64,000 nucleotides of DNA from contig CAYFJW010000001.1 of NCBI GenBank assembly GCA_964343875.1, positions 9,696 to 73,695 of the forward strand, read 5' to 3'. A program made the translations under genes and the position numbers. Positions within the stretch are counted from its first letter, which is position 1. The number at the start of each line of letters is the position of its first letter. Below are positions 34,913 to 57,795 of this stretch, piece after piece. Origin of the DNA: Candidatus Woesearchaeota archaeon. Lineage in GTDB: Archaea; Nanobdellota; Nanobdellia; SCGC-AAA011-G17; UBA489. The notes beneath the pieces are model-generated. The model ran no database searches. It worked only from the letters and a program-made list of their open reading frames with translations, and was not told where the DNA came from.

Positions 34913-35515
34913 TTAATCGTTTTTATTGGGGCGAGGAAAATAAGCATCCGCACTTGGTTCAGGAGTAATCCACTGTCTTAATCTGCGATCAACATTTTCA
35001 GGAACAAGACCCAACTCATCCAATAAAACTCTTTCAACAAGGGACCCATCCCCCAACACACATAAAGAATACAACAAATGTTCTCCGGCAACTCTGCCTT
35101 CTTCATTCAATTTTGCAGCATATTCTCCTGCAGACGCAAGAACTCTCCATGCTTCCTCCGTGGGAGCAATTGACAAATGTCCATTGTTACCTCCCACACT
35201 AGAACTTGCAAGTTTCCTCAAATCACCTTCTAAAAGAGCCCTAACTCTTCCTCCCTCTACACGAAAACTTTCAAGAAGAAGATTCCCTACACTATGCCCA
35301 TCCTCCACAATTGCTAAGAGTATGTGTTCTGGTCCAATCGCTGCGGAGCCATACCTTCTTGCTTCAAACTCGGCATGTTGTAAAATTCTCCTGCCACCCT
35401 CATTGACTATCTTTTCTACATCCAAGTAAACTTTGGGTACAGGTTCTAATCCTTCATTCATCCGCGACGGAACCATTGAGGGTTTATATGTTATTTCATA
35501 TTCCTCAAAATCCAA
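34913..35515 (-). CDS. Stand-alone Clp N-terminal (double Clp_N repeat) domain protein
   Basis: Two repeats: AAIGPEHILLAIVEDGHSVGNLLLESFRV and RVAGEHLLYSLCVLGDGSLVERVLLDELGL. Arg-rich and Lys-poor, unlike its neighbours. Confidence 0.7.
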   Translation of the reverse strand: MDFEEYEITYKPSMVPSRMNEGLEPVPKVYLDVEKIVNEGGRRILQHAEFEARRYGSAAIGPEHILLAIVEDGHSVGNLLLESFRVEGGRVRALLEGDLRKLASSSVGGNNGHLSIAPTEEAWRVLASAGEYAAKLNEEGRVAGEHLLYSLCVLGDGSLVERVLLDELGLVPENVDRRLRQWITPEPSADAYFPRPNKND

Positions 35516-35724: not shown

Positions 35725-36105
35725 ATGGCTGCAAGAAGAAGAAAAGCAACAAGGCGACGTTCTACAGCTAGAAGATCCACTACTAGAAGAAGATCGACTG
35801 CAAGGAGAGCTACAACAAGACGTTCCACAAGAAGATCCACTACTAGAAAAAGATCTACTGCAAGAAGAACATCAACAAGGAGAAAAGCTCCACGAAGAAC
35901 ATCTTCAGCAAGTGCAACTTTAGTGTCTGCACCAGCTAGAAAAAGTTCTAAAGATCAGGAACTAGCTGCAATGCATCTGTCAATTTTAATTGTGGGTGTT
36001 GCCGGTGTTATACTCCTATTTGCTAAACCAACTCCAATGATGCAGAAAGTAGTAGGTGTCCTACTAGTTATTCTCGGTCTTTGGGGCCTAATGATGAAGA
36101 AATAA
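35725..36105 (+). CDS. Arg/Ser/Thr-repeat protein with two C-terminal TM helices
   Basis: ATG at 35725 preceded by GAGGTG. N-terminal tract of about 55 aa of RRST(A/T)RR repeats, then LSILIVGVAGVILLF and VVGVLLVILGLWGLMM. Confidence 0.55.
   Translation: MAARRRKATRRRSTARRSTTRRRSTARRATTRRSTRRSTTRKRSTARRTSTRRKAPRRTSSASATLVSAPARKSSKDQELAAMHLSILIVGVAGVILLFAKPTPMMQKVVGVLLVILGLWGLMMKK
35734..35898 (+). repeat. Tandem coding repeats (RRSTARR/RRSTTRR units)
   Basis: RRRKATRRRSTARRSTTRRRSTARRATTRRSTRRSTTRKRSTARRTSTRRKAPRR. Repetition is also visible at nucleotide level (agaagatccactactagaa occurs twice). Confidence 0.8.
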
Positions 36106-38595: not shown

Positions 38596-38781
38596 GTGTT
38601 TCCCACGGAAAAAGAACTGATATCATTCGTTAAGAAAAAAGGCCTAGTCAACTTCAGCATGATTGCTAAGCATTTCCAAATACAAAACACCACAGTTTCT
38701 GATTTAGTAGCTTCTTTAGAAAAAAGAAAGGTTCTCAGAATAAAAAAATTGGGAGGATCCAAATTAGTTCTATTAAAATGA
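38596..38781 (+). CDS. Small winged-helix DNA-binding protein (GTG start)
   Basis: 61 aa. LVNFSMIAKHFQIQNTTVSDLVASLEKRKVLRIKKLGG resembles a MarR/TrmB-type wHTH. ATGA overlap with the next gene. Confidence 0.45.
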   Translation: MFPTEKELISFVKKKGLVNFSMIAKHFQIQNTTVSDLVASLEKRKVLRIKKLGGSKLVLLK

Positions 38782-40760
38782 ATAAGAAAGCCCAGGCAAC
38801 AGCCTTCATAATAGCAGGAATAGTAATTGTAGCAGTAGTAATTACAGGAGTTTACTTCAGGGCAGAAATATTCAACTCACTAAAAAAAGAAACACTCTCA
38901 GAACAACCAACAATAAGTCAAATAGAGAAGGTTCACTCTTTCACAAAAGATTGTTTACAAGGATCTCTTGACCAAGGAACGGCAGAACTTGGGTTAAAAG
39001 GCGGACACATTGTAATGCCAGAAGGAGATTACTCTCCAACACCATACAACCCATTGTCAAATAGACTAAGCATCTTTGGTAGCGAGGGATTGACAGTTCC
39101 ATACTGGTCATTCCTAACACCCAACAACCTAGAAAAAACACAAATTCCTTCAAAACAAGAAATGGAAACCGAACTAAAAGAATTTGTAGAAACAGAATTA
39201 GATACCTGTCTAAATGATTACACACTATTCAAGAGCGAAGGATATGATATCGAATACAACCCATCAGAAGTAGAAATAGATATTGGAAATGAAGCAGTTA
39301 TCGCAGACACTTCAATGTTCTTAGAGGTAAGATACAAAGAGACTGCACAAACATTCACAAGGTTCAAAACAATCTCAGATGTACCTCTCGGCAGGCTTTA
39401 CTCTAGGGCCCTAGAACTCTTCGAATACGAAGCAAGGACAGGGTTCGTAGAAAACTTCACCTTAGAAACAATGGTTGTATACGATGAAATCCCGTTCTCA
39501 GGAGTAGACTTTGAATGTACTCCGAGAACATGGTTAAAGACTCAAGTAGTACAAGACCTAAAATCAATATTGGCATTAAATATTCCAACTTTAAAGATAG
39601 AAGGAACAGATTTCAGAATAAAAGATAGAAAAGATGAACAATTAATACATGACGCACTAAAGAAAAAAGAAAGAGATCTAACCATTACACTAATCTCATC
39701 CCCTTCATGGCCATTAATGATGGACGTAATTGGAACGGATTCCGAATTACTAAGAGGCAAACCCTTCACAACAGAGAATGAAGCGGCTAGATTCTTATTG
39801 CCTCTATTCTGTTTAAATGATTACCATTTTGTATACGACTTAAAATTCCCAGTACTTGTAACATTAACAGAAGATGATTACACCTTCCAATTCCCATTTG
39901 TTGCAGTAATAGACAACAACCAAGCAAAGAAGAACCAATTCCTAGTTCCTCAGTTTGAAGATAATCAAGAAATATGTGAAAGAAAAGATACAACACTAAA
40001 GGTAACCGCATTAGGAATAGCAGCCGATAGCTCAACAGTTCCATTAGATGGAGCAGACATTTCATTCCAATGCGTATTTACAGAATGTGAAGCCGGCGTA
40101 ACAAGACAGGAAGGAAATACATATTCATTAACAACACAATTCCCGCAGTGTATTGGCGGTAAAATGACTGCCTCCAAACAAGGATACCATACATCCAGCC
40201 TAGAAGTAGATACAAACCAAGAAGGAATGGTCAACCTGCCCTTAGAGCCATACTACGAGCTACCGGTAGGAATAATGATCGATGATGAAGGAACTTTAAG
40301 ATCTCCATACGATACAGAAAGTATCTTATTCCAGTTTGAAAATGAAGACAAGGAATATTTCACAACATACTATTATCCCTCTGAAGAAAAATTAAAACTA
40401 ATTGCAGGAAACTACAAGGTATCGGCAACCTTAATAGTTGAAACATCTGGAGGATTTAATTTCCCAGAAAGACAAATAGAAATTTGTTCAGAAGTCCCAA
40501 AGAGAGGTATTGGTGGAATCACAGGACTAACAGAAACAAAATGTACACAACAAAAAATTGACCCAATACAATTAGATGCAGTTGTAGCTGGTGGTGGTTC
40601 AACTACATGGAACATAGACAGGAGAGTGCTAGCAACATCAAACAAAATCACACTATACTCTTACAGAGGCAAAACTCCGACATCATTCGAAGAACTGAAC
40701 AATGTTTATACAAGTCAAGGAACATTCAGTAAAAACATGAGGAGTCCATCGTTCGAATAA
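38778..40760 (+). CDS. Large secreted protein with possible class III (pilin-like) signal peptide
   Basis: MNKKAQATAFIIAGIVIVAVVITGVYF N-terminus (basic-A-Q then a hydrophobic stretch). 660 aa, no other recognisable domain. Confidence 0.55.
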   Translation: MNKKAQATAFIIAGIVIVAVVITGVYFRAEIFNSLKKETLSEQPTISQIEKVHSFTKDCLQGSLDQGTAELGLKGGHIVMPEGDYSPTPYNPLSNRLSIFGSEGLTVPYWSFLTPNNLEKTQIPSKQEMETELKEFVETELDTCLNDYTLFKSEGYDIEYNPSEVEIDIGNEAVIADTSMFLEVRYKETAQTFTRFKTISDVPLGRLYSRALELFEYEARTGFVENFTLETMVVYDEIPFSGVDFECTPRTWLKTQVVQDLKSILALNIPTLKIEGTDFRIKDRKDEQLIHDALKKKERDLTITLISSPSWPLMMDVIGTDSELLRGKPFTTENEAARFLLPLFCLNDYHFVYDLKFPVLVTLTEDDYTFQFPFVAVIDNNQAKKNQFLVPQFEDNQEICERKDTTLKVTALGIAADSSTVPLDGADISFQCVFTECEAGVTRQEGNTYSLTTQFPQCIGGKMTASKQGYHTSSLEVDTNQEGMVNLPLEPYYELPVGIMIDDEGTLRSPYDTESILFQFENEDKEYFTTYYYPSEEKLKLIAGNYKVSATLIVETSGGFNFPERQIEICSEVPKRGIGGITGLTETKCTQQKIDPIQLDAVVAGGGSTTWNIDRRVLATSNKITLYSYRGKTPTSFEELNNVYTSQGTFSKNMRSPSFE

Positions 40761-40761
40761 A

Positions 40762-43700
40762 ATGAATAAAAAATTAATTGCAATGTTTATGATTTTCCTA
40801 GTGCTAACCCTGCCAGTAGCATACGGTCAAATAATAAGAACCGATAACCCAGATCAAGGAAGAAACATTGGAGACGAATTAGAAAGAAGACTTACAGAAC
40901 CCCCGACAATTTCAGACATAGTCGGAGAAGACATTATAATCAACGTAAAAGAGTACCAACCCCCAATCCTTAGAACAGGCCTATTAGAGGACCAAGGAGC
41001 AGTAGTGTACGCAATACTATCTGGAACACCAAGTAACCCTGCAATAACAGTTCCAAAGATCCATGACGTAGACATTCTCTCATACAATGTAATAACAACT
41101 CCAGAAGATTTACCAGTAAGAGTTGGAAGACCAAGGTACTTCAGAGACAGAACACAACCATTAACATATGACAACATGGGTTACTTACAAATACCAATTG
41201 CAAGAATTCCAAAAGAATCAAATGTTCCAGACAACATAATAATAGAAGTAGACTCAAGAGTTTTATTTGATGTTTCTGCAGGGATTGGAAAAAGTCCAAC
41301 TAAGATGGTTATTAGAGAAAAATCAGCAGAAAGAGGTAATGTCGAAAATCAAAAATATTTAAACATCTACATTGAAGCCGAAGAAATATCTTCTGACTAT
41401 GCAATATTTGATATCTATGATAACAACGGCAACTTAATTGAAGATGATTTAAAATTAGAAAAAGGAAAGAAATCAAGAACATTAAGAAGAAATAGATTCT
41501 ACTCTCCAGGACAGGTCTTTGACAAATTCAACGTGTACCTTAAAGACATTAAATCTGGAGGAAGAACATTAGATATTATGGTCCTTAGGGACGGAGTTCC
41601 AGAAACACACACAGTCTCAGAAGGAGAATCGATATATCCTGGATCAGGAATTACATTAGAGAGAATCGAAATCAGAGGAGATAATATACATGCCGACTTC
41701 AGAACCCCCAGTGGCCGATTACAAACAGCAGGCTTTCCTAGGTCAATCCCGGACGCAGCAGGGGAAATAGACTTTGGAAGCTTGTCTATCGCAGAGAACC
41801 AAAGCCGAAGTAGTGGCGGACCGCCAATCCGAATATGTGGAGGCATAGAACTATCTTCGGCAATAAAAGACGCAGAAACTAAGCTACACACAGCAACAAA
41901 ACCAGAAGACTACAACTTAGTACTCCAAGACATAAAACCATGTACAGACATATTCCAAAAAGATGCAACAGCAGTATCAAAAGAACATGCAATAGCGATG
42001 CAAGCGTTACTTGCAACAATTGAGTCCGAAACATCGGCAAGGTTAGTTGAAGATGCTAGTTTTGGAGGTGTACACACAATGGCACAAGGAAGATTAAATG
42101 AATTCTTAACAAAGTATTGGGAAACATACCAAACTGCTGAGTTCTCATTAGGAGCAATTGCAAACGATGAAACAGTGGAAGAGCTATATAGATTATCTGC
42201 AGAAGAATACGCAAGTGTTGTTTCACTAAATGAGGGCGATTTGGAAGTTAAATACGAAGGTGCGGCAAGCGGAGATAAAACAGCAATCCCAGAATTCTAT
42301 GCACAGTATAACAGAGCAGTGATCTATCATGCTAAATTAAAAGACTTAAGCAGAGCAGTAATAGAATACAATGCCCTGTTGGAAATGATTACAAAATACG
42401 AAGGAAACAAAAAAGCAGAGGCGGAAGCAATAATTTCTCCTGGGAGAATTCAAGGTAGAATCAATCTATTAACCTCCTTCATTAAAGACCCCTCAGGAAA
42501 GAGCCTTAGAGCTGAAATAGACTTAAAAGAGAAGAACGATGAAATTGTTACAGTGGTACTAGACGGTTCAAGTATAACCGATTACCAGTTAGAGGGAAGT
42601 CAATCAACAGCAACGGTAAGAGTCCACAACCCGGAAGGATCGGCAGCAGAAGAAAAACACATGCTCAAGGAGGGGGATTCAGTACCATTCATAGAAGGAT
42701 CATCGCCCTGGGTTGTAGAAAAGATAACATCAAACTCCATAATAATCAAACCAACATACAAAGACCATAGAACAACAACAATTCCAAGAGATAACAGGAA
42801 CGGAATCAGTATTCCAATAAAGATTGATGATAAATTTACAACACAAAGAGTAGTTTTAGAAAGTGTTGAATTGCATAATGAAGCACACATAATCGTAAGT
42901 CCAAACATAGAAAAAGCATTCAGTGCAGCAAGATTTAACTTACACATCCCAATTGAAAAAAGAGCATTCGACTTACCTTTATTCTCTGCATCAATTGAAT
43001 CTGAGATAGATAAAACAGAAAGACTCTTAGAGAAACTAGATGACACTTTAGAAAAAGTTGGAAAGATACACGAAGCATGGAAGAAATTTTGTTTTGGGGT
43101 TTACACCGCAATAGCGGCATGGAATTTCTTAAAATCTGTAGTTGGTTCGGGTTCAGGAAGAGCAAAAGATAGAGCATCAGAAACCTTCTGGAAACAAAAC
43201 GGTGATTGGTGTAAGAGTAAGGGGTTCTCAATGGATGAGTGTGTATTTGAAAGAGAAGATGCATACAACACAATTTTAGAAAACGAAGAAGAAGCCTATG
43301 AATATGCAGCAAAAGACACCTATACAGGGGATCTGAGCGGCGTTAAAAAAACACCAGAAAACAAGGTGCAAATGGAAAACTTAGCATATCTACAAAAAAG
43401 AATGCAACAAAATAACAGTACTGAGAACACAAAAGATTACCTTAACGCTTATGTTGGTGTAATGGCGGATAGGAATTATGAGGAGGAACTAGCAAAAACA
43501 GGCAAATCAGAGAGAGAATTATCCGATAGTGAAAGGGCAAACCTAAAGTTAGCAGTTGCAGATAGAAACGCACAAATGTTTGGAACACTAGGTAATGCCT
43601 ATTCCAACCAAAAAGACTACCTACAAACTCTTGATGTTTCAAGAGCATCAATTTACTTGCCGAAGGATAATAAAGTATTCTTGGGAGATCTAGCAGAGTT

Positions 43701-46263
43701 TGACCCAAATAAACTTTCACCGGAATTAAAAAAGAACATAGAAGACGCATGGATATCAAGGGAGGTGGAAATACTAAGAAAAGAAAACCCAGACCTAACA
43801 GTAGAGGAAGCAACAAAACAAGCGAGTAGTAGGGTTGTAGCAGCATTAGGGGGTGCAGGTTATGTATACACCTCTCCAAACGGAGGATTAATTCTCTTTG
43901 AGCAAAAAGAACAAGGAAAAAATTCATTACTATCCCCAGATGGAAAAACATACGAACTATCTTCAACATCAGTTGAACAAAGAGTAGAACACAAACCACT
44001 AGTAACCTACTACACAGACGGTCCAAATGCAGGAAAGATACACAGAATAACTATTGATGCAACACATTATGCAGAAATAGAATACACTTCCGGGGGAAGA
44101 ATGCTTGAACCAAGAATATTTGCGCGCACAGATCCAAATGCAGAAATAAGGGTAGATGACACAGAATATGGAGGGGGAGGCATTAGGGATGTAACTGCCT
44201 TATGGAAACAAGAAGGAAAAGATGTATCCGACCTTGGGAAAGTAGAGTCATGTGTTGGAACTATTAACAGGGCAAAAGCCTCAAAAAGAGATATGGTTAT
44301 CTGTAACGGGGTTGAATATGCAATCAGAAATGACCCAGCAATAAAAGGTCCGGCATGTGTAGAGTTTTACAGTCCAACAGAATGTAAATTATTATTTAAT
44401 GCATGTGATCCAGTTCTTTGTCCATCAAGTAGATTTGACTTGGGAGGAGAATGGAGAGTTGATAATGTAGCAGAAACTGGAATAATAGGAAGCACAATCT
44501 TAGGACTACATAACTTTGGAATACCTGGGACGGATATAGGCTTTGATGGCGGACAAGTTGTAATGCCAATTTGCATAACTGGCGTTTATGCAGGATTACA
44601 AAATATTAGAACTGTATTAATGGAATATTCAGACTGCCTAAAAAGATCTTTAGTTGATGATGAGTCAGTTGGAATTTGTGATATGCTAAGAAGTTATTAC
44701 ATTTGCGATGTTCTTTGGAAGGAAGCAATTGCAATATTTAATATTAAGAGCGGATTAGTGGGCACAGTATTAAAATCAATACATGATGATGAAGGTTCAG
44801 AGTACACAGACTTTGATGCAAGCATGGACCAATCAATAAATGGATTGAAATACTTCACTCAAAGTTATGCAAAGAATACATTTGCACAATTCTCGGGCGG
44901 AGCCCTCCCAGAAATAGGTGCAGAGGTGTGTAAGGCCGCAGTATATGGAAAGGTTCCAGGAGTAGGGTCATTCACAGATAGATTAATGCAACCAGAAAGT
45001 CCGCCACAATTCACAGCAATAATGGACGTTGTCCCATATTCAGACATTCCATTCCCTCCACAAGCAACATACAAAGTATATTACAGAATGTACGCAGGAG
45101 CAAATGAACCAATTTCATTCTCTGTATATCTAAAACATCAAGCAATAGATGGACAAAGTGGATTGCCAATAGCCTGGCTAGTAAGAAACAAAAGACTAAC
45201 ACCGGATGCATTTGACTCAGAAAACATTGACTTCAATGCGCCAGAAGGATACAACCAAGTATGCATGACTTATAGTAGTCCAACTTATGGTGTAAGAGAA
45301 GAATGTGGCTTCGGGAAAACAACTTCTGGCTTCGCAGTTAACTACATCGCACAAAAAATGGCAGAAAAAGAAGCAGGTCAGGAAGGAATACAAACTGCAG
45401 AACAATGTAACCCTTCTGGTTCAAGTTTGAGTGGACCCTACACTAGCACCACATCAAAAGTTGGAGCCGTAGCAGTTGGAGGATTTTCTTCAGGATTATT
45501 GGAAACGGGAATAATAAGGGTTTGTTCAACTTTCCCTCCAGGAGAAGATGTAGATTGGAAGGAAGTAGGAGAATGTTGGGAAGGACCAAAACCAAATGAA
45601 GGAAGGCACTTAGGTTATTGTTGGTTACATCTGCCATCTGCAGAGAAGATTGTAACAAAGTACTCAGTAAACAAAGATATTGATTGGAACAACTTTGAAA
45701 AAACACTACCTAATGCAACACAAGGTGCCGTAGACAGAATAAGCGAATATGCCCGAAAGTTAGGTTTAAGATCAGTTTATCTAACTACCGAGGATATTGA
45801 AGAAGCAGAAAAGAGAATTGAAACTGCCATATCAAATGGCAAATATGAAGAAGCAATAAACATATACAGGGATGTAATTGACAATGGCGTTCTTACCGTA
45901 GTAAAACAAGTAGAGTTAAGACTTGGACTCGCAGACCTATATAGGGAGTTTGCAAGTTTAACTGAAAATGAGAAAAACAGTCAACCATCTACAACAACCC
46001 CTCCACCAACACCACCAACACCACCAGCAACCACAGTTACTGCCACAACAACCGCAACATCTGGGCCATTCTGGTACCAGGTAGAAAAGGGAGATACACT
46101 TGCAGATGCCACCAATCACTCAAAAACGTATCTTGTAAATGAAGTAATAAAGACAAACACAGCATTGACATATTTTGTTCTCGAAATGCATAATGGCACA
46201 ACATTTAGAGTTCACCAAACAACAATTGCTAGCCTAGCCAGTGCAGGTTGGACTCTCCTTTAA
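40762..46263 (+). CDS. Giant (1833 aa) secreted/cell-surface protein
   Basis: Sec-type signal MNKKLIAMFMIFLVLTLPVAYGQ, internal hydrophobic segment FCFGVYTAIAAWNFLKSVVG. Cys-rich region CVEFYSPTECKLLFNACDPVLCPSS, Thr/Pro linker TTTPPPTPPTPPATTVTATTTAT (about 45985..46062). Small C-terminal domain WYQVEKGDTLAD is LysM-like. Confidence 0.7.
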   Translation: MNKKLIAMFMIFLVLTLPVAYGQIIRTDNPDQGRNIGDELERRLTEPPTISDIVGEDIIINVKEYQPPILRTGLLEDQGAVVYAILSGTPSNPAITVPKIHDVDILSYNVITTPEDLPVRVGRPRYFRDRTQPLTYDNMGYLQIPIARIPKESNVPDNIIIEVDSRVLFDVSAGIGKSPTKMVIREKSAERGNVENQKYLNIYIEAEEISSDYAIFDIYDNNGNLIEDDLKLEKGKKSRTLRRNRFYSPGQVFDKFNVYLKDIKSGGRTLDIMVLRDGVPETHTVSEGESIYPGSGITLERIEIRGDNIHADFRTPSGRLQTAGFPRSIPDAAGEIDFGSLSIAENQSRSSGGPPIRICGGIELSSAIKDAETKLHTATKPEDYNLVLQDIKPCTDIFQKDATAVSKEHAIAMQALLATIESETSARLVEDASFGGVHTMAQGRLNEFLTKYWETYQTAEFSLGAIANDETVEELYRLSAEEYASVVSLNEGDLEVKYEGAASGDKTAIPEFYAQYNRAVIYHAKLKDLSRAVIEYNALLEMITKYEGNKKAEAEAIISPGRIQGRINLLTSFIKDPSGKSLRAEIDLKEKNDEIVTVVLDGSSITDYQLEGSQSTATVRVHNPEGSAAEEKHMLKEGDSVPFIEGSSPWVVEKITSNSIIIKPTYKDHRTTTIPRDNRNGISIPIKIDDKFTTQRVVLESVELHNEAHIIVSPNIEKAFSAARFNLHIPIEKRAFDLPLFSASIESEIDKTERLLEKLDDTLEKVGKIHEAWKKFCFGVYTAIAAWNFLKSVVGSGSGRAKDRASETFWKQNGDWCKSKGFSMDECVFEREDAYNTILENEEEAYEYAAKDTYTGDLSGVKKTPENKVQMENLAYLQKRMQQNNSTENTKDYLNAYVGVMADRNYEEELAKTGKSERELSDSERANLKLAVADRNAQMFGTLGNAYSNQKDYLQTLDVSRASIYLPKDNKVFLGDLAEFDPNKLSPELKKNIEDAWISREVEILRKENPDLTVEEATKQASSRVVAALGGAGYVYTSPNGGLILFEQKEQGKNSLLSPDGKTYELSSTSVEQRVEHKPLVTYYTDGPNAGKIHRITIDATHYAEIEYTSGGRMLEPRIFARTDPNAEIRVDDTEYGGGGIRDVTALWKQEGKDVSDLGKVESCVGTINRAKASKRDMVICNGVEYAIRNDPAIKGPACVEFYSPTECKLLFNACDPVLCPSSRFDLGGEWRVDNVAETGIIGSTILGLHNFGIPGTDIGFDGGQVVMPICITGVYAGLQNIRTVLMEYSDCLKRSLVDDESVGICDMLRSYYICDVLWKEAIAIFNIKSGLVGTVLKSIHDDEGSEYTDFDASMDQSINGLKYFTQSYAKNTFAQFSGGALPEIGAEVCKAAVYGKVPGVGSFTDRLMQPESPPQFTAIMDVVPYSDIPFPPQATYKVYYRMYAGANEPISFSVYLKHQAIDGQSGLPIAWLVRNKRLTPDAFDSENIDFNAPEGYNQVCMTYSSPTYGVREECGFGKTTSGFAVNYIAQKMAEKEAGQEGIQTAEQCNPSGSSLSGPYTSTTSKVGAVAVGGFSSGLLETGIIRVCSTFPPGEDVDWKEVGECWEGPKPNEGRHLGYCWLHLPSAEKIVTKYSVNKDIDWNNFEKTLPNATQGAVDRISEYARKLGLRSVYLTTEDIEEAEKRIETAISNGKYEEAINIYRDVIDNGVLTVVKQVELRLGLADLYREFASLTENEKNSQPSTTTPPPTPPTPPATTVTATTTATSGPFWYQVEKGDTLADATNHSKTYLVNEVIKTNTALTYFVLEMHNGTTFRVHQTTIASLASAGWTLL

Positions 46264-47077: not shown

Positions 47078-47174
47078 GGATTCGAACCTTAGTAGGCACT
47101 AAGCCACTGGGTTTCTTAGGTTTTTGTTCTTAACCTCCTAAGCCCAGTCCATTTGACCGCTCTGGCACTCCCAC
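47067..47174 (-). tRNA. tRNA-Leu(UAG), class II, with a 24-nt canonical 37/38 BHB intron (47113..47136)
   Basis: Minus strand: acceptor GTGGGAG/CTCCCAC + A73, anticodon stem CTGGG/CCCAG, loop CTTAGG|A. Long variable arm TGGCTTAGTGCCTAC, T arm TAAGG-TTCGAAT-CCTTA. BHB: central CTTA/TAAG, bulges GGA and AAA, inner helix GGTT/AACC. Confidence 0.85.
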
Positions 47175-48023
47175 GCGTTTAAATCTTGAAAGACAATCGC
47201 GGAATACTCTATCTCGCGATTTACTATTTTTAAAAATATCTAATTTCTTGAGAATCAAAAAATTAGCATGCCCATAGATATCTAGCTCATATTGCCCATC
47301 TTTGTTTCTTCCAGAATTACATTTTTGAGGAGATTTACATTTTACGTTGTGTTTCAAAAGAATATTTCTAATTAATCTTAGAGTCCTAACATCTTTCCCA
47401 CAGAGGTTTACTGCATTTAATGTGTTATTTCTATTCCTTCTAACAACAGGACAGCCTTCAGCAGCATAATAACCTCTTACAAACCCTAGCCCTAGTTTCA
47501 AATCATTAAGACATCTCTTTAATGCAATTTCTTGCATGGTCAAAACAAGTCTATGGAATAAAACACTATGAAATCGAATATTAACTCTCTCTATGTTTCC
47601 TGGATTTGTTTTTGGAATACCTGGCCTATTGAACTGATCAGTTGACAAACCTAGCAACTCAGCCCAACGTTTGTTGATATTGATCAATTTAGAATTTTTT
47701 GAACCGATAACAATAAACTTCAAGTTAGCTTTATCTAAGCCAAAGTATTTTTTTAACCAACTTATGAAAAATTTTAATAGGTTTAGATCCGAATTTGTAA
47801 ATGAAATTCTTGTAGGCTTATTACTTTTTTCACCTTCACCAATGTAAAGACCTAAACCTTCAAAGAATTCCTGATCTACCGTAATTATTCTTTTAACAAC
47901 TATTGGTTTTGGCTGCCCGCCTTTTTTGTTTTTGCAAGAAACTCTAAGGAGATCATTCCTTAAACCTTCAAAAAGAGTATTCTCCGAAAAGCATCCAAGA
48001 GATTTAATGTCTAATTTAAACAT
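47130..48023 (-). CDS. Free-standing double-motif LAGLIDADG homing-endonuclease-like protein
   Basis: Motifs FFEGLGLYIGEGEK and LGFVRGYYAAEGC. The last 15 codons (RVGVPERSNGLGLGG) are read from the tRNA-Leu 5' half. The TAA stop (47130-47132) lies inside the tRNA intron. Confidence 0.75.
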   Translation of the reverse strand: MFKLDIKSLGCFSENTLFEGLRNDLLRVSCKNKKGGQPKPIVVKRIITVDQEFFEGLGLYIGEGEKSNKPTRISFTNSDLNLLKFFISWLKKYFGLDKANLKFIVIGSKNSKLININKRWAELLGLSTDQFNRPGIPKTNPGNIERVNIRFHSVLFHRLVLTMQEIALKRCLNDLKLGLGFVRGYYAAEGCPVVRRNRNNTLNAVNLCGKDVRTLRLIRNILLKHNVKCKSPQKCNSGRNKDGQYELDIYGHANFLILKKLDIFKNSKSRDRVFRDCLSRFKRVGVPERSNGLGLGG

Positions 48024-48661: not shown

Positions 48662-49042
48662 ATGGCAAACGCACAATCACGTTCAAAAAGGAAGCCTACT
48701 GGCGGTAGATACGTTCCCATGAGATCCAAAAGATTAAGGGAATTAGCAAGACTTCCAACATTAACAAGGGTCGGAGAGAGACTAATTAAAACAATGAGAA
48801 AAAGGGGCGGAAAAACAAAAACAATCTCAATCACAGACACTACAGCAAACGTTTTTGATCCAAAAACAAAAAAATATTCTAAGGTAAAGATCGAACAAGT
48901 TGTTGAAAATCCAGCTAACAGACACTTTGTTAGAAGAAACATTCTCACAAGAGGTACAATAATCAAGACCTCCAAGGGAAACGCAAAAATACTTTCCCGA
49001 CCAGGCCAGGAAGGAGTGGTTAATGCGATTTTCGTTAAGTAA
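48662..49042 (+). CDS. rps8e: Ribosomal protein S8e
   Basis: SRSKRKPTGGRYVPMRSKR N-terminus and C-terminal GQEGVVNAIFV. Confidence 0.9.
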   Translation: MANAQSRSKRKPTGGRYVPMRSKRLRELARLPTLTRVGERLIKTMRKRGGKTKTISITDTTANVFDPKTKKYSKVKIEQVVENPANRHFVRRNILTRGTIIKTSKGNAKILSRPGQEGVVNAIFVK

Positions 49043-49058
49043 TTCTTAACCATCACAA

Positions 49059-49658
49059 ATGCAAGAAGATAACATAGCAGCATTACTAAGATGTGGTCCC
49101 GCAATGACCAGTTTAAAAAATGTTCCTGATGAACTTCTTAGAGAAGCCCTAAGCGACACCCCAGATGAACCAACACAATTCTACACTCCTCTCGAAAATA
49201 ATAAAATAATGGTTGCTACCGATGGAAGCGCACCAAGGAACCATAAACCATGGATAACTATTGACCTAGGAGCCCTCATAGGCAACAGACATACAGACAG
49301 ATCTTTGCTAGAATCACTCTTACTAATGTTTCGCTGGAGAAATGAATTTAAAGATCCCTCTGATTTTAAGGCATGGAGCAAGGAATTAAAAGCCAACCCG
49401 GTTTACGTAAAAATGTTAAGAGATTCTCTATACCCTTGTAGTGTTTTAGGACAAAGAACTGAAACTGATCCAAGGCATCCAGAAGGAAGTTTGAGGGTAA
49501 GAACGCCTTTCTTATTAACCCCTCACACAAACACTTCAATATCTGGAACACCAGTTTACGAACAAGCAACAGGAAATTTTTTCAGACCAAACATAAGAAT
49601 TGGGATTTCTAAATATAGTCAATTATTTGCGGAAGTACAAAGGGAGGAAGCAGCATGA
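49059..49658 (+). CDS. Unknown-function protein, paralog 1 of a 4-gene tandem family
   Basis: Shares N-terminal QED..A motif, FY motif (QFYTPL) and YPCSVLG motif with the next three ORFs. Arg-rich and Lys-poor. Confidence 0.6.
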   Translation: MQEDNIAALLRCGPAMTSLKNVPDELLREALSDTPDEPTQFYTPLENNKIMVATDGSAPRNHKPWITIDLGALIGNRHTDRSLLESLLLMFRWRNEFKDPSDFKAWSKELKANPVYVKMLRDSLYPCSVLGQRTETDPRHPEGSLRVRTPFLLTPHTNTSISGTPVYEQATGNFFRPNIRIGISKYSQLFAEVQREEAA

Positions 49659-50242
49659 CACGCATAAAACAAGAAGATGCACAAGCGATAATTGAAGCAA
49701 CAAGAAGCCACCCCTCCATAGTCGCAGGTCTTAATGAAGATCAGATAAGAGCTGAGATTGAAGCAACAAATGCACCTATTAAATCAAGAAGATTTTATGA
49801 TTTTGTTGATGGAAGGGGCCAATCAAAGGATGAAGCAAGCAGAGAAATAACATTTACACCCAGAAGAGTTCTAAGAAATCATGGAGATTACAGTTTAAGA
49901 TTTGCATTACCAAAAAGAGTTATTGGAGCAGTAGCTCATGAACTAGGTGCCTATTCTTCAAATAGGCTTGCAAGAAACCTAAGGGCCCACCAAGAAATAA
50001 TGAGATTTATGGCACAATCGCCACATCCATTCTCATTACTAGGCAAACTAGAAGTTTTAGACTATGAAATGCCCGGAAAATCTATCAGAGAAACATCTCC
50101 CGTTTTGATTATTCCAGGATTACGCCAGGAAGATGCAAGAACAGTTTCCGATTGGGAATTAAGTCACAGAGTCCGAGAAGAAGAATCTAGTCTTGGTTTA
50201 TTCAAACATTGGAAAAGGATTTCACCAGAGAGGTATGTATAA
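49655..50242 (+). CDS. Unknown-function protein, paralog 2
   Basis: MTRIKQEDAQAIIEA, RFYDFV, HPFSLLG, SPVLIIPGLRQEDARTVSDWE. ATGA overlap with paralog 1. Confidence 0.6.
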   Translation: MTRIKQEDAQAIIEATRSHPSIVAGLNEDQIRAEIEATNAPIKSRRFYDFVDGRGQSKDEASREITFTPRRVLRNHGDYSLRFALPKRVIGAVAHELGAYSSNRLARNLRAHQEIMRFMAQSPHPFSLLGKLEVLDYEMPGKSIRETSPVLIIPGLRQEDARTVSDWELSHRVREEESSLGLFKHWKRISPERYV

Positions 50243-50796
50243 TGGATAGAAGAAACGCGTTAGATATATGGGAATCTTTTATGACCCACCCTGCCATAGC
50301 TGAATATGGGCTTAGGAGTATGTTTACAGATAAATCACTAGAAGCATTAGAAGCCTCAGGTAATTCTAACTTTTATCAAAGAGTAAAAAGAGCAGGATCG
50401 ATTGGAGATAATGACGGCAGTAAATTTTCACTGAGGGGTGTGATAAACAATGGCCAAGTTGGAAACCACGGAAGTAAATTAGTAAGAAGTTTACTGGGAA
50501 TGTGGGATTCATCAGGTCCACTTTCAATGTGGGTTTTATCACGACTTGCAAGAAGGGATGCAAGCATCGCAAGTGTACTAAAGTCATGTGAAAGTGCATA
50601 CTCTGCAACAGGAAGATTAGAAACTTACGATACCGACGGAAGACCAACCTCCGTACGTCCAATATTAATTGTTCCAGGGTTAGATGTAGAACAAAGAACA
50701 ATACTTGACAAATGGGAAACAAGATACACAAGAAGAGGAAGAAACTTACAAGGGATAGCAGCAATTGGACTCCCAGTAGACACATCATACAATTAA
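50242..50796 (+). CDS. Unknown-function protein, paralog 3
   Basis: ATG at 50242 overlaps the paralog 2 stop (TAATG); the track start at 50209 is TTG. NFYQRV, RPILIVPGLDVEQRTILDKWE. Confidence 0.6.
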   Translation: MDRRNALDIWESFMTHPAIAEYGLRSMFTDKSLEALEASGNSNFYQRVKRAGSIGDNDGSKFSLRGVINNGQVGNHGSKLVRSLLGMWDSSGPLSMWVLSRLARRDASIASVLKSCESAYSATGRLETYDTDGRPTSVRPILIVPGLDVEQRTILDKWETRYTRRGRNLQGIAAIGLPVDTSYN

Positions 50797-50797
50797 A

Positions 50798-51325
50798 ATG
50801 CCAAGAGTAACTCAAGAAAACGCAGAAGCAATTGTAGCAGAGTTACATTACCATGTAGCAGGCAGTTTGACAGATCCACAATATCTTATGGACAGATTAG
50901 TTTCAGCGGAACTTCCCGACACAGGTAATTTTTATCTCCCACTTCCCCAAGGAATAGTGCCAATATCCAGCAGTATGCCTATGGCGGCGGAAGGAGTACT
51001 TGACAATAGAAGAGTAATGGATAGTTTGGATTCCGGTCTTAGAACATTCACATTAGCGGATCTAACAAGGGCTACACCACATGATCCTCACGCAATAGCA
51101 AGGGAGATGCAAAGGGATGAAGAAATAACGGACGTCCTACAAGCATGTCAATACCCTTTCTCCGCATTATGTTTAGTTGAAAACTTTAAACCTAGCAGTT
51201 TCTTAGGATCAACGGCACCATTGAGATCAAGACCAGTTATCCTCGTTCCGGGAAATAACCACGATGGAAGAGCCCCATTAACTAGGCTTGAGAGAAGGTT
51301 TGAAAGGCCGCTCAGAAATGCTTAA
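50798..51325 (+). CDS. Unknown-function protein, paralog 4
   Basis: MPRVTQENAEAIVAE, NFYLPL, YPFSALC, RPVILVPGNNHDGRAPLTRLE. Starts 2 nt after paralog 3. Confidence 0.6.
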   Translation: MPRVTQENAEAIVAELHYHVAGSLTDPQYLMDRLVSAELPDTGNFYLPLPQGIVPISSSMPMAAEGVLDNRRVMDSLDSGLRTFTLADLTRATPHDPHAIAREMQRDEEITDVLQACQYPFSALCLVENFKPSSFLGSTAPLRSRPVILVPGNNHDGRAPLTRLERRFERPLRNA

Positions 51326-51349: not shown

Positions 51350-52081
51350 ATGAAAAAAGAGTCTAATTCAAAAACAATTATTATCACTGTAGTCATCATT
51401 GCAGTTGCATTCTTAATCGGTTTATCTTTCTTTGCCCCACAAACACAGGGACAAACAGTTCAAGTTACTGGAAATTCCCAATTAACTATTGCTCCGGATG
51501 AAATTGGAATTTATGCCCAAATACAGTCTACAAAAGACACAGCAAAAGAAGCTAAAGATGCAAATTCAATAATTTCAGATAAAATAGTTCAATCATTAAA
51601 GCCATTAAATATTCCAGAGGACAGTATTAACACAGAAAACTACAATGTTTACGAACAATTTGATTGGTTCGAGGGTACAAAAAGCGAAGATAACAAATTT
51701 GTTGCCTCGCATAATATAAAAATCACATTAAAAGATCAAGATTTAATGGGAGATGTAATTGATGCAGTAATCGACAATGGCGGATTAGTCAACCGAATAA
51801 CTTCTGAATTATCTTTTGAGAAAAATAACGAACTTAAATCTAAAGTTTTAGCATCTGCCGCATCCGACGCAAGGGGTAAAGCCGAGGCTATCGCTTCAGG
51901 CCTAAACATGAAAGTTGGCAAATTGGTTTCTGTTACAACTAATGATTATGGATATCAGCCTCCAATTGCATACGCCAGAGCTGAAATTGCAATTGATGAA
52001 GCACAAAGCATCCCGACAGACTTAGAAGTCAGAGATATAGATCTAAATGCAGTTGTTAATGTTGTTTACGAATTAGTTTGA
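51350..52081 (+). CDS. SIMPL/DUF541-domain protein with N-terminal membrane anchor
   Basis: TM IIITVVIIAVAFLIGLSFF, then VTGNSQLTIAPDEIGIYAQIQS...AKEAKDAN...INTENYNVYEQ, typical of SIMPL. ATG at 51350; the track start at 51329 is TTG. Confidence 0.65.
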   Translation: MKKESNSKTIIITVVIIAVAFLIGLSFFAPQTQGQTVQVTGNSQLTIAPDEIGIYAQIQSTKDTAKEAKDANSIISDKIVQSLKPLNIPEDSINTENYNVYEQFDWFEGTKSEDNKFVASHNIKITLKDQDLMGDVIDAVIDNGGLVNRITSELSFEKNNELKSKVLASAASDARGKAEAIASGLNMKVGKLVSVTTNDYGYQPPIAYARAEIAIDEAQSIPTDLEVRDIDLNAVVNVVYELV

Positions 52082-52168: not shown

Positions 52169-52576
52169 CTAACAACATCCTTTGGAAGAGAACCATTCTT
52201 TTCTTGTAGGCCTTTTAGTTTCAATAATTCCTAAAATATCTTCATTTTGATTTCTCTTGCTTTTGTCACTCGTTCGATAGATTACTATGTCTGCCCTTTC
52301 ATTTCTATTTTTTTTTGAGTTTTTTTCACCCCTTTGGATAGGAACCTCAATTCCCATTTGTCCAAATTCATAATCGTAATCTTCGTATAAGACTCTTTCA
52401 TAATCTTGTCTAACTTTTTCCTCAGGGGTTTCACGAAGTTGCTTCCCAGAGGATAAATCTCTGATATAGCCTTCTTTCAAAAGATCTTCCGTCATTTTTT
52501 CAAAGTTAGGGAAGTGGCAGACTTTGTAAATGTTTCTATTCCTTGAATAGTAGCAAAATTTGTTCCAAAGTTTCAT
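52169..52576 (-). CDS. HsdR_N-like (type I restriction R-subunit N-terminal, PD-(D/E)XK-type) domain protein
   Basis: EEKVRQDYERVLYEDYDYEFGQMGIEVPIQ...RADIVIYR...ILGIIETKRP. Start placed at ATG 52576, which overlaps the transposase TGA (ATGA). Confidence 0.5.
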   Translation of the reverse strand: MKLWNKFCYYSRNRNIYKVCHFPNFEKMTEDLLKEGYIRDLSSGKQLRETPEEKVRQDYERVLYEDYDYEFGQMGIEVPIQRGEKNSKKNRNERADIVIYRTSDKSKRNQNEDILGIIETKRPTRKEWFSSKGCC

Positions 52577-53787
52577 TCCAGAAATTCTCCTTTTATTCCT
52601 AGTTCTTGGATTTCGTGGGCTACTACGCATATGTTGTGGCAGAGGAATTTTAGGTATAGTTCGTTTTTTTGGGCTGTGAAGCTTTTACTCTTGAGGTTTG
52701 AGCCGAACTTCATTTTTATGATGTGGAATACTGTTTCTGCATTGGATCTTTTTGAATATTCTTTGAGGAATTCTTCATTTTTGTATAAGAAGAAGTAATG
52801 CATCTTTAACCAGATAGGACTCCCCCGCGTATTTACTTTGGCATTAACTTTGAAAGGGATGTAAGGGACTCCGCCTTTTTCATCAATTTTTTCTAAATTT
52901 TTCTTAGAACTGTAAGCTTTGTCACAGCTGACCCCGCCAAGCCTAAACATTTTACTTGTCTCATCGACGAGGCGGGAAAGCTGAGGACTATCAGCATGTC
53001 TCTTATCCGTGATGTTTACGGATGTGACAATGTTGGTTTTCACTCCAGACATTACGTGGGCTTTCAACCAATACCTGTATTCGTTATTGTTGTGATGTCT
53101 GTAAGTCAGATATCTTGCAAATTTGGAACTACTAAAACCAGAACTATCTATTGCAAAATCTTTTTCAACACCTCTCAATGGATAACTGCTGAGATGTATC
53201 AACTTTTTAACCAACTTGGTTGTCTGAGGTTTTTGCAAGAAATGCCCTACTGAAGCATAGCACGGCACAGAGGTGATTAATTTCATTTCGTGGGCAATCT
53301 TAGCGTAGGACATAAATCTCCTTAGAGAGAATGTAGAATAGACCTTTAGGGCTGAACAGAACATTAAGTCTTTTGTTGATAGTTTAGGTCTTCCAAATTT
53401 GTATTTAGGCTCTTCAATCTGATTACACAAATCATTTAGTAGTTTCATGAATGTGAATAACTCATTAGTCTGGGATTTGTCATAAGCCTTCCAGTTTTGT
53501 CCGTACTGGACTCTAACACCTTTAGTTCTCCTTACTTTTCCTTCTTTGTTGATTACATCTTTGATAAAGAACTCCACAGCGTAGATATGCTTACATTTAG
53601 AATGCGTTAGTTTAGAATCTGGACAAGTACATTTAGGATATTGTAGCCTGAAAGTTACTAGATATGTTCCTTTTCCTACTTGTGATGGCACGGACCAGCC
53701 TTTTTCTGTTTTGGTTATTTTGAGGGTTTTGTAGATTAAGAGTCCTCTCTCTTCCCTGTTTAGTTTTTTCCATTCTTGTTTTCTCAT
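52573..53787 (-). mobile_element. IS4/IS5-like DDE transposase with N-terminal SWIM zinc finger
   Basis: SWIM CTCPDSKLTHSKCKHIYAV. DDE triad candidates FAIDSSGF, GGVSCDKAYSS and SNAETVFHIIKMKFG. 404 aa. Confidence 0.7.
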
Positions 53788-56458: not shown

Positions 56459-57301
56459 GTGATATTCATTTACAGAACCGAAATAAAAAAGAGTTTGAAA
56501 CAACTTAAATTGAAGCTTATCTTTCCGGATATCTTATTCTTCATAATTAGTTTATTCTTATTCGGAATGTTCACACGAGTAACGGGCCTTACAAACGTCC
56601 CTCCGGAAGCATTAGAGGCAGGACTTGAGTCATATGTAGCCTCAAACTTTGGTCCACTAATGGGGTCCATATTTGTATTTGTATTAATTGCGTTCTTCAT
56701 TGGAGCAGGATTAAAAGCATTCAAATTAAAAATGATCCTTGAAGCAATGAAGGGCAAGGACTTCGATATGTGGAAAGCCTTCAAAGATTCTCATAGATTC
56801 TATTGGAGAGTAATCGGATTAAAGATATTATCATTCGTAATATTATTGGTTGGTTTTGTTACAGCAATAATTATCTTCTTGTTATTGAGGAATATGGCTG
56901 AGCTCCTTGCAGGTGTACTCGCAGTGTTGCTTCTACTATTTGTAGTTCTAGCATTGTTATTAAAAGAAGCAGCATTGTTCCAAAAAGATGTAAACGCAGC
57001 AGATGCAATAGCCAACTCTTTCAAAACATTCAACAAACACAAAATGTTGATCTTTGGGTTATTGATTATAGTCCTAGCTGTAAACTTTGCAGCAGCAATC
57101 TTAGAAGGTATCTTCCCACAATCACCAGGGGCAATGGGTGTTATAATCTCAACAATATTCTTACTAATAATATTATTGATCTCTGCATGGGGCAACCTAT
57201 TCACCTTTAACATATACCAAAGAATAACAAAGAAAAGAACTTCTAAAAAGGTTAAGAGAACTAGAAGGAAAACAACTAAAAAAAAGAGAAAAGGTAACTA
57301 A
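56459..57301 (+). CDS. Polytopic membrane protein with Lys/Arg-rich C-terminal tail (GTG start)
   Basis: Five or six hydrophobic helices. Tail KKRTSKKVKRTRRKTTKKKRKGN. Confidence 0.5.
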   Translation: MIFIYRTEIKKSLKQLKLKLIFPDILFFIISLFLFGMFTRVTGLTNVPPEALEAGLESYVASNFGPLMGSIFVFVLIAFFIGAGLKAFKLKMILEAMKGKDFDMWKAFKDSHRFYWRVIGLKILSFVILLVGFVTAIIIFLLLRNMAELLAGVLAVLLLLFVVLALLLKEAALFQKDVNAADAIANSFKTFNKHKMLIFGLLIIVLAVNFAAAILEGIFPQSPGAMGVIISTIFLLIILLISAWGNLFTFNIYQRITKKRTSKKVKRTRRKTTKKKRKGN

Positions 57302-57795
57302 CATTCCCTGTGTTCTGGCCTATGTAAGAGCTCTCCTGTTTCTAGATCTTTAAAACCTACGAAGATATCTCTTGGCTTTGTTACTTCTTCCAAACCCGCT
57401 CTAAGTTTACCCCTTAACAAGGCAAGACCTTCAGGTGTGATTGCCGGAGATCTGCCAAAAACTTCAGAATATGCATTCTGTGGAGCGCTACCAGCATTGA
57501 TTTCATTCTCTGCATTTGCTGCAAAATCAACAAGGACGAATTCTTGAGAATAACTTCCAAGAGCTGTGAAATCAAACTTCCCAGACTCGCTCAATAGACG
57601 CTCTCTGTCTAAAAATGGAAATGTCCTACCAAGGCCCCTGCCTTCATTAGAGATCAACGAGGCTACATACCTACCAATACACTCGTCCCTTATTTCCCTA
57701 AAACCTGGAACAGGAGTTCCAGATAAAATTCTCTTTATTTCTTGCCTGTAAGGCATTAGCTCATCGCTTAATAACATAAGAAAAAAATAAACCAA
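57298..57795 (-). CDS. Hypothetical Arg-rich, Lys-poor cytoplasmic protein
   Basis: Intact ORF. The likely true start is MPYRQEIKRIL (ATG 57756). No recognised motif. Confidence 0.45.
   Translation of the reverse strand: MVYFFLMLLSDELMPYRQEIKRILSGTPVPGFREIRDECIGRYVASLISNEGRGLGRTFPFLDRERLLSESGKFDFTALGSYSQEFVLVDFAANAENEINAGSAPQNAYSEVFGRSPAITPEGLALLRGKLRAGLEEVTKPRDIFVGFKDLETGELLHRPEHREC

Follow-up and report, generated by a model that had tools for sequence, protein, structure and literature searches.

The stretch analyzed here (the window) comprises 64,000 nucleotides from a Candidatus Woesearchaeota archaeon (GenBank assembly GCA_964343875.1, contig CAYFJW010000001.1, positions 9,696–73,695 of the forward strand). 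Directly behind rps8e, the gene for ribosomal protein S8e, it carries four tandem paralogs, which we label A, B, C, and D in 5′ to 3′ gene order (Table 1). We find this array to be a tandem expansion, restricted to one clade, of a conserved and soluble protein of ~190 amino acids. A first-pass annotation made from the sequence alone had described the four proteins as an unrecognized Arg-rich family, and had proposed either a heteromeric assembly or a rapidly diversifying, horizontally acquired module related to viruses, host interaction, or defense. The gene content of the window is archaeal (L37e, S8e, LSM, TFIIB, and tRNA-splicing endonuclease), and the proteins it encodes most closely resemble those from metagenome-assembled genomes (MAGs) of DPANN archaea.

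A tandem array of four paralogs behind rps8e

The lengths of the four open reading frames (ORFs), their junctions, and their placement 16 nt behind the rps8e stop codon on the same strand are as first described. A and B overlap through ATGA (reading ...GCATGACAC), B and C overlap through TAATG (reading ...TATAATGGA), and C and D are separated by a 1-nt gap (TAAAATG). An alternative, longer start for C is the TTG at 50209. The spacer between rps8e and A, being so short, is unlikely to hold a separate promoter for A, and TATA-like A+T-rich elements (TTTAAA and CTTAAAAATA) occur 20–60 nt 5′ of the rps8e ATG. Downstream, 24 nt separate D from a SIMPL/DUF541 gene, which is probably on the same transcript. 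A–D would thus be co-transcribed with rps8e and SIMPL, and their translation would be coupled.

Table 1. The array and its immediate surroundings in window coordinates. Bit scores are against the canonical hidden Markov model (HMM) of the family; pI, isoelectric point; L001, contig of the second array-bearing lineage.
Feature	Coordinates	Strand	Remarks
rps8e (ribosomal protein S8e)	48662..49042	+	PF01201; probable first gene of the transcription unit
Paralog A	49059..49658	+	199 aa; pI 6.4; most divergent copy; 32 bits
Paralog B	49655..50242	+	195 aa; pI 9.5; canonical ortholog of the DPANN-wide family; 161 bits
Paralog C	50242..50796	+	184 aa from ATG; pI 9.4; intermediate divergence; 81 bits
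Paralog D	50798..51325	+	175 aa; pI 5.5; one Lys; stops after helix 5; 55 bits
SIMPL/DUF541 membrane-anchored protein	51350..52081	+	PF04402, 7.7e-39; conserved downstream neighbor
Divergent block, window lineage vs L001 lineage	49079..49795	none	A from codon 8 on and approximately the first 47 codons of B

Pairwise phmmer comparisons connect B with C (5e-10), C with D (1e-10), A with B (2e-5), B with D (1e-5), and A with D (3e-3); homology between A and C went undetected by direct pairwise phmmer. An HMM built from unrelated family members only nonetheless recognizes all four proteins (Table 1), and A–D are true homologs whose similarity exceeds chance. The motifs noticed at first pass were largely recovered. 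The N-terminal (K/T)QE(D/N)A.AI(I/V)EA-like motif is present, and all four proteins carry the central (N/R/Q)FY motif, as QFY, RFY, or NFY. The (Y/H)P(F/C)S.L(G/C) motif, ascribed to all four, occurs in A, B, and D (YPCSVLG, HPFSLLG, and YPFSALC), but is reduced to a degenerate SAYSATG in C. The C-terminal RP(V/I)LI(V/I)PG...(W/L)E motif, ascribed to three proteins, is seen in B, C, and D in the form (S/R)P(V/I)(L/I)(I/L)(I/V)PG followed by WE or LE.

The four proteins have Arg contents of 7.5–11.8% and Lys contents of 0.6–4.5%, giving R/(R+K) ratios of 0.62–0.94, as compared to 0.13–0.46 for most other proteins of the window. They are therefore Arg-rich and Lys-poor, although “almost devoid of Lys” fits to the letter for D alone. 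Enrichment of Arg relative to Lys typically accompanies protein-protein interfaces and the binding of nucleic acids. A and D are acidic (pI 6.1–6.4 and 5.5–6.1, respectively) and B and C basic (pI 9.5–10.1 and 9.4–10.0, respectively), and this charge pattern is kept in both lineages that carry the array. No transmembrane segment is evident in any of the four, in agreement with the first reading, and no secretion signal is evident either. Arg-rich ORFs occur elsewhere in the window as well. One (57298–57777, minus strand, 159 aa) is also Lys-poor (R 9.4%, K 3.1%), has no Pfam match, and is not picked up by the family HMM. A 126-aa ORF with 20.6% Arg (35725–36105, plus strand) is adjoined by an Arg-rich Clp_N-domain protein (34913–35476, minus strand; R/(R+K) 0.76), both being further exceptions to the Lys-rich proteome.

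The wider family and its predicted structure

When 1.84 billion representative proteins (clusters at 50% identity) were searched exhaustively with HMMER, at least 225 representatives of the family were found at E≤1e-3, of which 121 reach E≤1e-10. Almost without exception, members are 170–210 amino acids long and are matched over their full length. We defined the family from 129 canonical members, which score at least 110 bits against the canonical HMM (median 195) and share the consensus motifs SSRFYE, LSLRRvLRN.NA, G.YSS..LtR.LR, PFSLLGKleTyD, TRPiLIIPG, and WE..NT.YE.E. Apparent N-terminal fusions in four longer members (P0033, P0037, P0068, and P0110) lack Pfam domains and seem to stem from wrongly called starts. 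Word-indexed protein searches listed only matches from the array's own clade: six with a 4-sequence profile, five with a 97-sequence profile, and nine with B alone.

Searched with a 12-sequence canonical subset, GTDB species-representative genomes contain seven loci, labeled as Woesearchaeota, Nanoarchaeota, Pacearchaeota, Aenigmatarchaeota, and, in one case, Methanosarcinales. Another 24 loci were found in JGI metagenomes. The Methanosarcinales locus encodes a canonical member (300 bits) on a 6.5-kb contig (CAZGEW010000073.1) of a MAG labeled “uncultured Methanosarcinales archaeon”; it reflects either wrong binning of a DPANN contig or the genuine presence of the family beyond DPANN. The survey of distribution thus located the family in DPANN MAGs and in metagenomes. 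No family homolog was found among IMG/VR viral contigs, or by tblastn among INPHARED phages and PLSDB plasmids.

The first-pass annotation had recognized no known family in the four proteins, and sensitive profile searches of Pfam, NCBIfam, and PDB sequences yielded no confident match to a housekeeping family. Pfam had no match at E≤1 for A–D, and for 97 family members it had three isolated matches only, all at E>1e-3 and none meaningful. NCBIfam returned only noise for A–D and for canonical members, and a family profile had zero matches at E≤10 among PDB sequences, which likewise gave nothing for A–D themselves. PADLOC-DB had no match for A–D or for 12 canonical members, and PHROGs gave a single match, at E=0.19. 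No source names any member of the family. To judge from these searches, the family is widespread in DPANN, which had gone unnoticed at first pass, yet absent from the curated libraries checked. As it belongs to none of them, we place it outside all known kinds, a rating made against curated families, defense systems, viral families, and solved structures. This novelty should be read in the light of the many such orphan families held by DPANN genomes. Castelle et al. (2021; PMC8204110) describe families of unknown function that extend across Pacearchaeota and Woesearchaeota, such as the 51 families of “module 98”. The family described here has a similar spread (Woese-, Pace-, and Nanoarchaeota, with Aenigmatarchaeota in addition), and likewise consists of small core-genome genes without Pfam annotation. 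That paper reports neither a four-copy array nor a fold prediction, although the family itself could be among the 51 of module 98.

Structures were predicted with AlphaFold2 for monomers of B (85-sequence alignment) and C (7 sequences). The model of B is confident, with a mean predicted local distance difference test (pLDDT) score of 90.4 (88.7–90.4 over five models) and a predicted template modeling score of 0.86. In this model, two N-terminal helices lead into a three-stranded meander and a long loop (residues 75–101), followed by two helices, a β-hairpin, a long helix, a second hairpin, and a short helix. Residues 90–97 of the loop are of low confidence, and the conserved YSS sequence lies within or beside them. 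The model of C (pLDDT 75) has the same order of secondary structure elements up to helix 5, after which a low-confidence tail replaces the hairpin.

A Foldseek search with the B model found no solved relative: nothing in the PDB was significant (best E 0.77, template modeling (TM) scores ≤0.25), and the best match in BFVD had an E of 0.23, with TM-scores over both databases of ≤0.28. The match of the C model to the major histocompatibility complex (MHC) platform, which ranked first, was at noise level. The MHC class I platform, p32/gC1qR, hot-dog thioesterases such as FabZ, and Anbu/proteasome proteins resemble the predicted structure in having an antiparallel β-sheet packed on helices. However, the matches to these proteins were at E values of 0.1–3, TM-scores of 0.1–0.25, and root-mean-square deviations of 11–18 Å, which amounts to noise and is no evidence of homology or of a common fold. 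The family is predicted to have an α+β structure, modeled with confidence, that has no detectable relative in Pfam, NCBIfam, the PDB, or BFVD. Its alignment and HMM, of ~130 sequences, could serve as the starting point for an entry of its own in Pfam or arCOG.

Over ~26 loci, no neighbor family of the gene recurs in more than three, and Pfam annotation of 30 immediate neighbors indicates no consistent function. The gene follows S8e in the window and in a close relative (L043, below), follows S19e-L31e-Cbf5 at another locus (L016), and elsewhere adjoins SpoU or Trm5 methyltransferase genes. Other neighbors include thermosome, FKBP, M48, M23 peptidase, GyrB, HerA, SepF, Fic, and MFS genes. This spread fits a stand-alone housekeeping gene with no operon partner. 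DPANN archaea have tiny genomes, and a single-copy gene conserved across several of their phyla is thus likely to be important; here such a gene comes without annotation and with a confident predicted structure unlike solved or viral ones. Two loci bring the gene close to chaperone-related genes. At metagenome locus L025 (5634–7926) it lies between genes for an FKBP prolyl isomerase and an M48 (HtpX-like) peptidase on the same strand, and in a Pacearchaeota MAG (L014, 8001–10227) it lies 25 nt upstream of a thermosome gene. We judged this hint of a connection to protein folding too thin to build on.

Origin, divergence, and selection of the copies

Every locus outside the clade with a match to the family HMM has exactly one copy, including ten distinct single-copy loci with at least 2 kb of flanking sequence on both sides. 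The best BLAST match in the window for each single-copy homolog is always B, at 30–38% identity. The close relative L043 (S8e 91%, LSM 96%, and SIMPL 85% identical) has the gene order L37e-LSM-S8e-[one gene, 63% identical to B]-SIMPL. Since L043 holds one B-like gene at the same syntenic site, the four-copy array is confined to a narrow clade. The array recurs in a second lineage, composed of a 28-kb Logan contig (L001) and three shorter contigs. L001 has the order L37e-LSM-S8e-A-B-C-D-SIMPL, with junction types identical to those of the window. An exact-sequence look-up of the window's LSM protein returned only these two array-bearing lineages, which are also the ones that depart, with four copies, from the rule of one copy per locus.

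The canonical HMM, built from members outside the clade only, scores B at 161–165 bits in all three lineages, well within the canonical range. A (32 bits), C (81–84 bits), and D (55–58 bits) score significantly but below the canonical minimum, as divergent offshoots do. No A-, C-, or D-like protein from other lineages occurs among the 1.84 billion representative proteins. Together with the synteny of L043, these scores identify B as the conserved ortholog and A, C, and D as clade-restricted, extremely diverged copies. B itself has not accelerated since the expansion.

Two origins are compatible with these data: either duplication in situ after the split from L043, or an earlier duplication followed by loss in L043. 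Three comparisons do not tie the divergent copies to B in particular. None of A, C, and D resembles B more than it resembles outgroup members; they share only 1–3 of 30 residues specific to the B clade, against a background of 1.1; and a crude neighbor-joining tree joins only C with D (66% bootstrap).

What the copies kept was assessed at the 29 positions with at least 70% conservation across the family, of which canonical members match a median of 25 and a minimum of 18. B matches 23 of these, C 17, A 13, and D 12. F42, N70, S122, P145, and P150 are retained throughout the array. Missing from A and D are the RR pair of LSLRRvLRN (strand 3), the Y and S of the YSS loop, K126 (which follows the PFSLLG strand), and W161-E162 (in helix 5). 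C has lost some polar or basic motif positions and keeps WE. At the C-terminus, A retains a hairpin-like segment, the hairpin of C is degenerate or disordered, and D ends just after helix 5 and so lacks it. The array is in this sense a natural experiment, in which the basic and polar motifs lost from A and D would be dispensable, and F42, N70, S122, P145, and P150 would not.

All four reading frames are intact in L001. The ratio of nonsynonymous to synonymous substitution rates (dN/dS, Nei-Gojobori) between the window and L001 is 0.16 for A, 0.27 for B, 0.31 for C, and 0.19 for D, as compared to 0.00–0.10 for neighboring genes. A–D are thus under purifying selection, which is more relaxed than that on their neighbors, and all four were found conserved in a relative. 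When the two lineages are compared, the C-terminal tail of C (50696–50785) proves rich in indels, with 64% identity and 12 gap columns, and C measures 184 aa in the window but 180 aa in L001.

Between the two lineages, elsewhere about 90–97% identical, a block of ~720 bp over A and the 5′ end of B is divergent (Table 1). Nucleotide identity is 0.90–0.97 from LSM through S8e and 20 nt into A, falls abruptly to 0.52–0.70 through the rest of A, is 0.72–0.78 over the first ~140 nt of B, and then returns to 0.92–0.94. The flanks of the block are mostly at 0.8–0.97. The A protein is 60% identical to its L001 ortholog, and its dS is saturated (about 2.0), as compared to 0.39 for S8e and 0.32 for B. 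Given its sharp edges and the high dS, the block probably arose by recombination with an allele from further afield, and selection by itself is a less likely source. The earlier description of the array as rapidly diversifying is partly borne out: A, C, and D score lower than any canonical member, and A lies in a sharply bounded block. A free-standing ORF resembling LAGLIDADG_3 homing endonucleases (47130–48023, minus strand) adjoins rpl37e. The ORF that occupies this site in L001 shares only 30% identity with it, amid flanking genes that are 84–100% identical, and the two lineages therefore carry different endonuclease alleles.

A putative hetero-oligomer and its alternatives

Our preferred reading, the most economical one and in line with the heteromeric assembly proposed at first pass, is put forward tentatively and at less than even confidence. 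In it the array proteins would form a hetero-oligomer, with B as the canonical subunit and A, C, and D as specialized partners. The ancestral protein would have been a homo-oligomer, which the hetero-oligomer would replace in the array clade. B would provide the ligand-binding or active surface of the ancestor, whereas the other three would serve as structural or regulatory subunits. This reading follows from the presence of one canonical copy beside three degenerate copies that are still selected. It draws further on the fixed gene order, the coupled junctions, the conserved complementary charges, and the preference for Arg over Lys, the last two being weak pointers to assembly. In archaea, homo-oligomers are known to have given way to hetero-oligomers through duplication, as in the heterotrimeric PCNA1-3 of Crenarchaeota and the α2-β2 tRNA-splicing endonuclease with its degenerate structural subunit. 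The array resembles these systems in that one copy is canonical, and the others have lost functional residues, keep the core, are selected, and are clustered. It has no sequence or structural similarity to them, and the analogy is one of evolutionary mechanism only.

The ligand could be phosphate-bearing, most likely RNA or another nucleic acid, to judge from the conserved Arg clusters, from a conserved loop left without order in the monomer model, and from the repeated proximity of translation and RNA-modification genes. Some observations count against parts of this proposal. Same-strand neighbors overlap or lie within 1 nt of each other in 18 of 42 pairs in the window, so that the coupling of A–D is by itself weak evidence for joint function. 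The family has a median pI of only 7.7, which speaks against an RNA ligand, and the gene neighborhood, being unconserved and including unrelated genes, makes the link to RNA weak.

A more far-reaching version of the hetero-oligomer reading is improbable in our estimate. It would make the family a new fold and an unnamed core component of Woese-, Pace-, Nano-, and Aenigmatarchaeota, which in this clade has become a four-subunit machine whose outer subunit A is swapped between strains by recombination along with the N-terminal helices of B, and which serves as a recognition module at the interface between symbiont and host or symbiont and virus. If this were so, the strong selection of Arg over Lys could shield the proteins, inside a foreign cytoplasm, from being modified or degraded at Lys.

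The main rival, which we consider less likely than the hetero-oligomer, is that the copies act as independent paralogs, with A, C, and D having acquired new specificities (for example, toward host or virus targets) and A being a recombining, diversifying cassette. Their scores far outside the canonical range would be expected from this, as would the sharp ~720-bp block at 52–78% identity, the confinement of saturated dS to A, dN/dS values above those of the neighbors, and the extreme depletion of Lys amid a Lys-rich proteome. The array also borders variable DNA, namely the LAGLIDADG locus on one side and, on the other, an insertion sequence (IS) element in the window and a defense island in L001. 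However, dN/dS is well below 1 for all four genes, A included, and only two alleles have been seen. The lack of an evident secretion signal or transmembrane segment, and of any match in defense or viral libraries, also counts against this reading. The rigid gene order, junctions, and charge pattern fit co-functioning subunits better.

Rather less probable is that the family is a very divergent form of a known housekeeping protein, such as an RNA-processing or ribosome-biogenesis factor, which the searches missed. DPANN proteins are often too diverged for detection by HMMs, and thus could lie beyond the reach of our searches. The same caveat is made in PMC8204110. The occurrence of the gene as a single copy, widely in DPANN and in core contexts beside ribosomal and RNA-modification genes, is also what this explanation would predict. 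Several results count against it: 97 members have no meaningful Pfam match, NCBIfam offered nothing, the profile search of PDB sequences was empty even at E≤10, and the high-confidence model of B matched no PDB structure.

The proposal of a horizontally acquired viral, mobile, or defense module is largely refuted, and we consider it very improbable. A–D are ~2–4% higher in GC than their surroundings, and mobile and defense genes occur within 1–8 kb. The extra GC lies in the first two positions of codons (Arg, Gly, Ala, and Pro content) and thus reflects amino acid content rather than foreign origin. Third-position GC (0.22–0.31) and the use of AGA and AGG for Arg are as in the rest of the genome, and hence codon usage carries no foreign signal. 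The family has no relatives in IMG/VR, phages, plasmids, PHROGs, PADLOC, or BFVD; B has as its ortholog a core gene that L043 carries in single copy at the corresponding syntenic site; and no donor of A-, C-, or D-like sequences was found among the representative proteins. That A, C, and D are decaying, functionless duplicates would agree with their loss of many family-conserved residues and with the loss of the C-terminal hairpin from C and D, but is likewise hardly credible given frames intact in two lineages separated by a dS of 0.3–2, dN/dS values of 0.16–0.31, conserved core positions, lengths, and charge pattern, and an otherwise compact genome.

A variable region begins directly after SIMPL. 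In the window it contains an HSDR_N_2 fragment and a DDE_Tnp_1 transposase (52169–53787, minus strand), and at the same position in L001 (13372–20603) it contains genes for Fic, an IS240-type transposase, GmrSD, ThsB-TIR, and an MmeI-like restriction-modification protein. Upstream of the array, the window has two adjacent giant ORFs of 660 and 1833 aa (38778–46263, plus strand) without Pfam matches. Both are conserved in L001, the larger one at 77% identity with a dN/dS of 0.10, and they may encode large surface proteins of the kind typical of DPANN.

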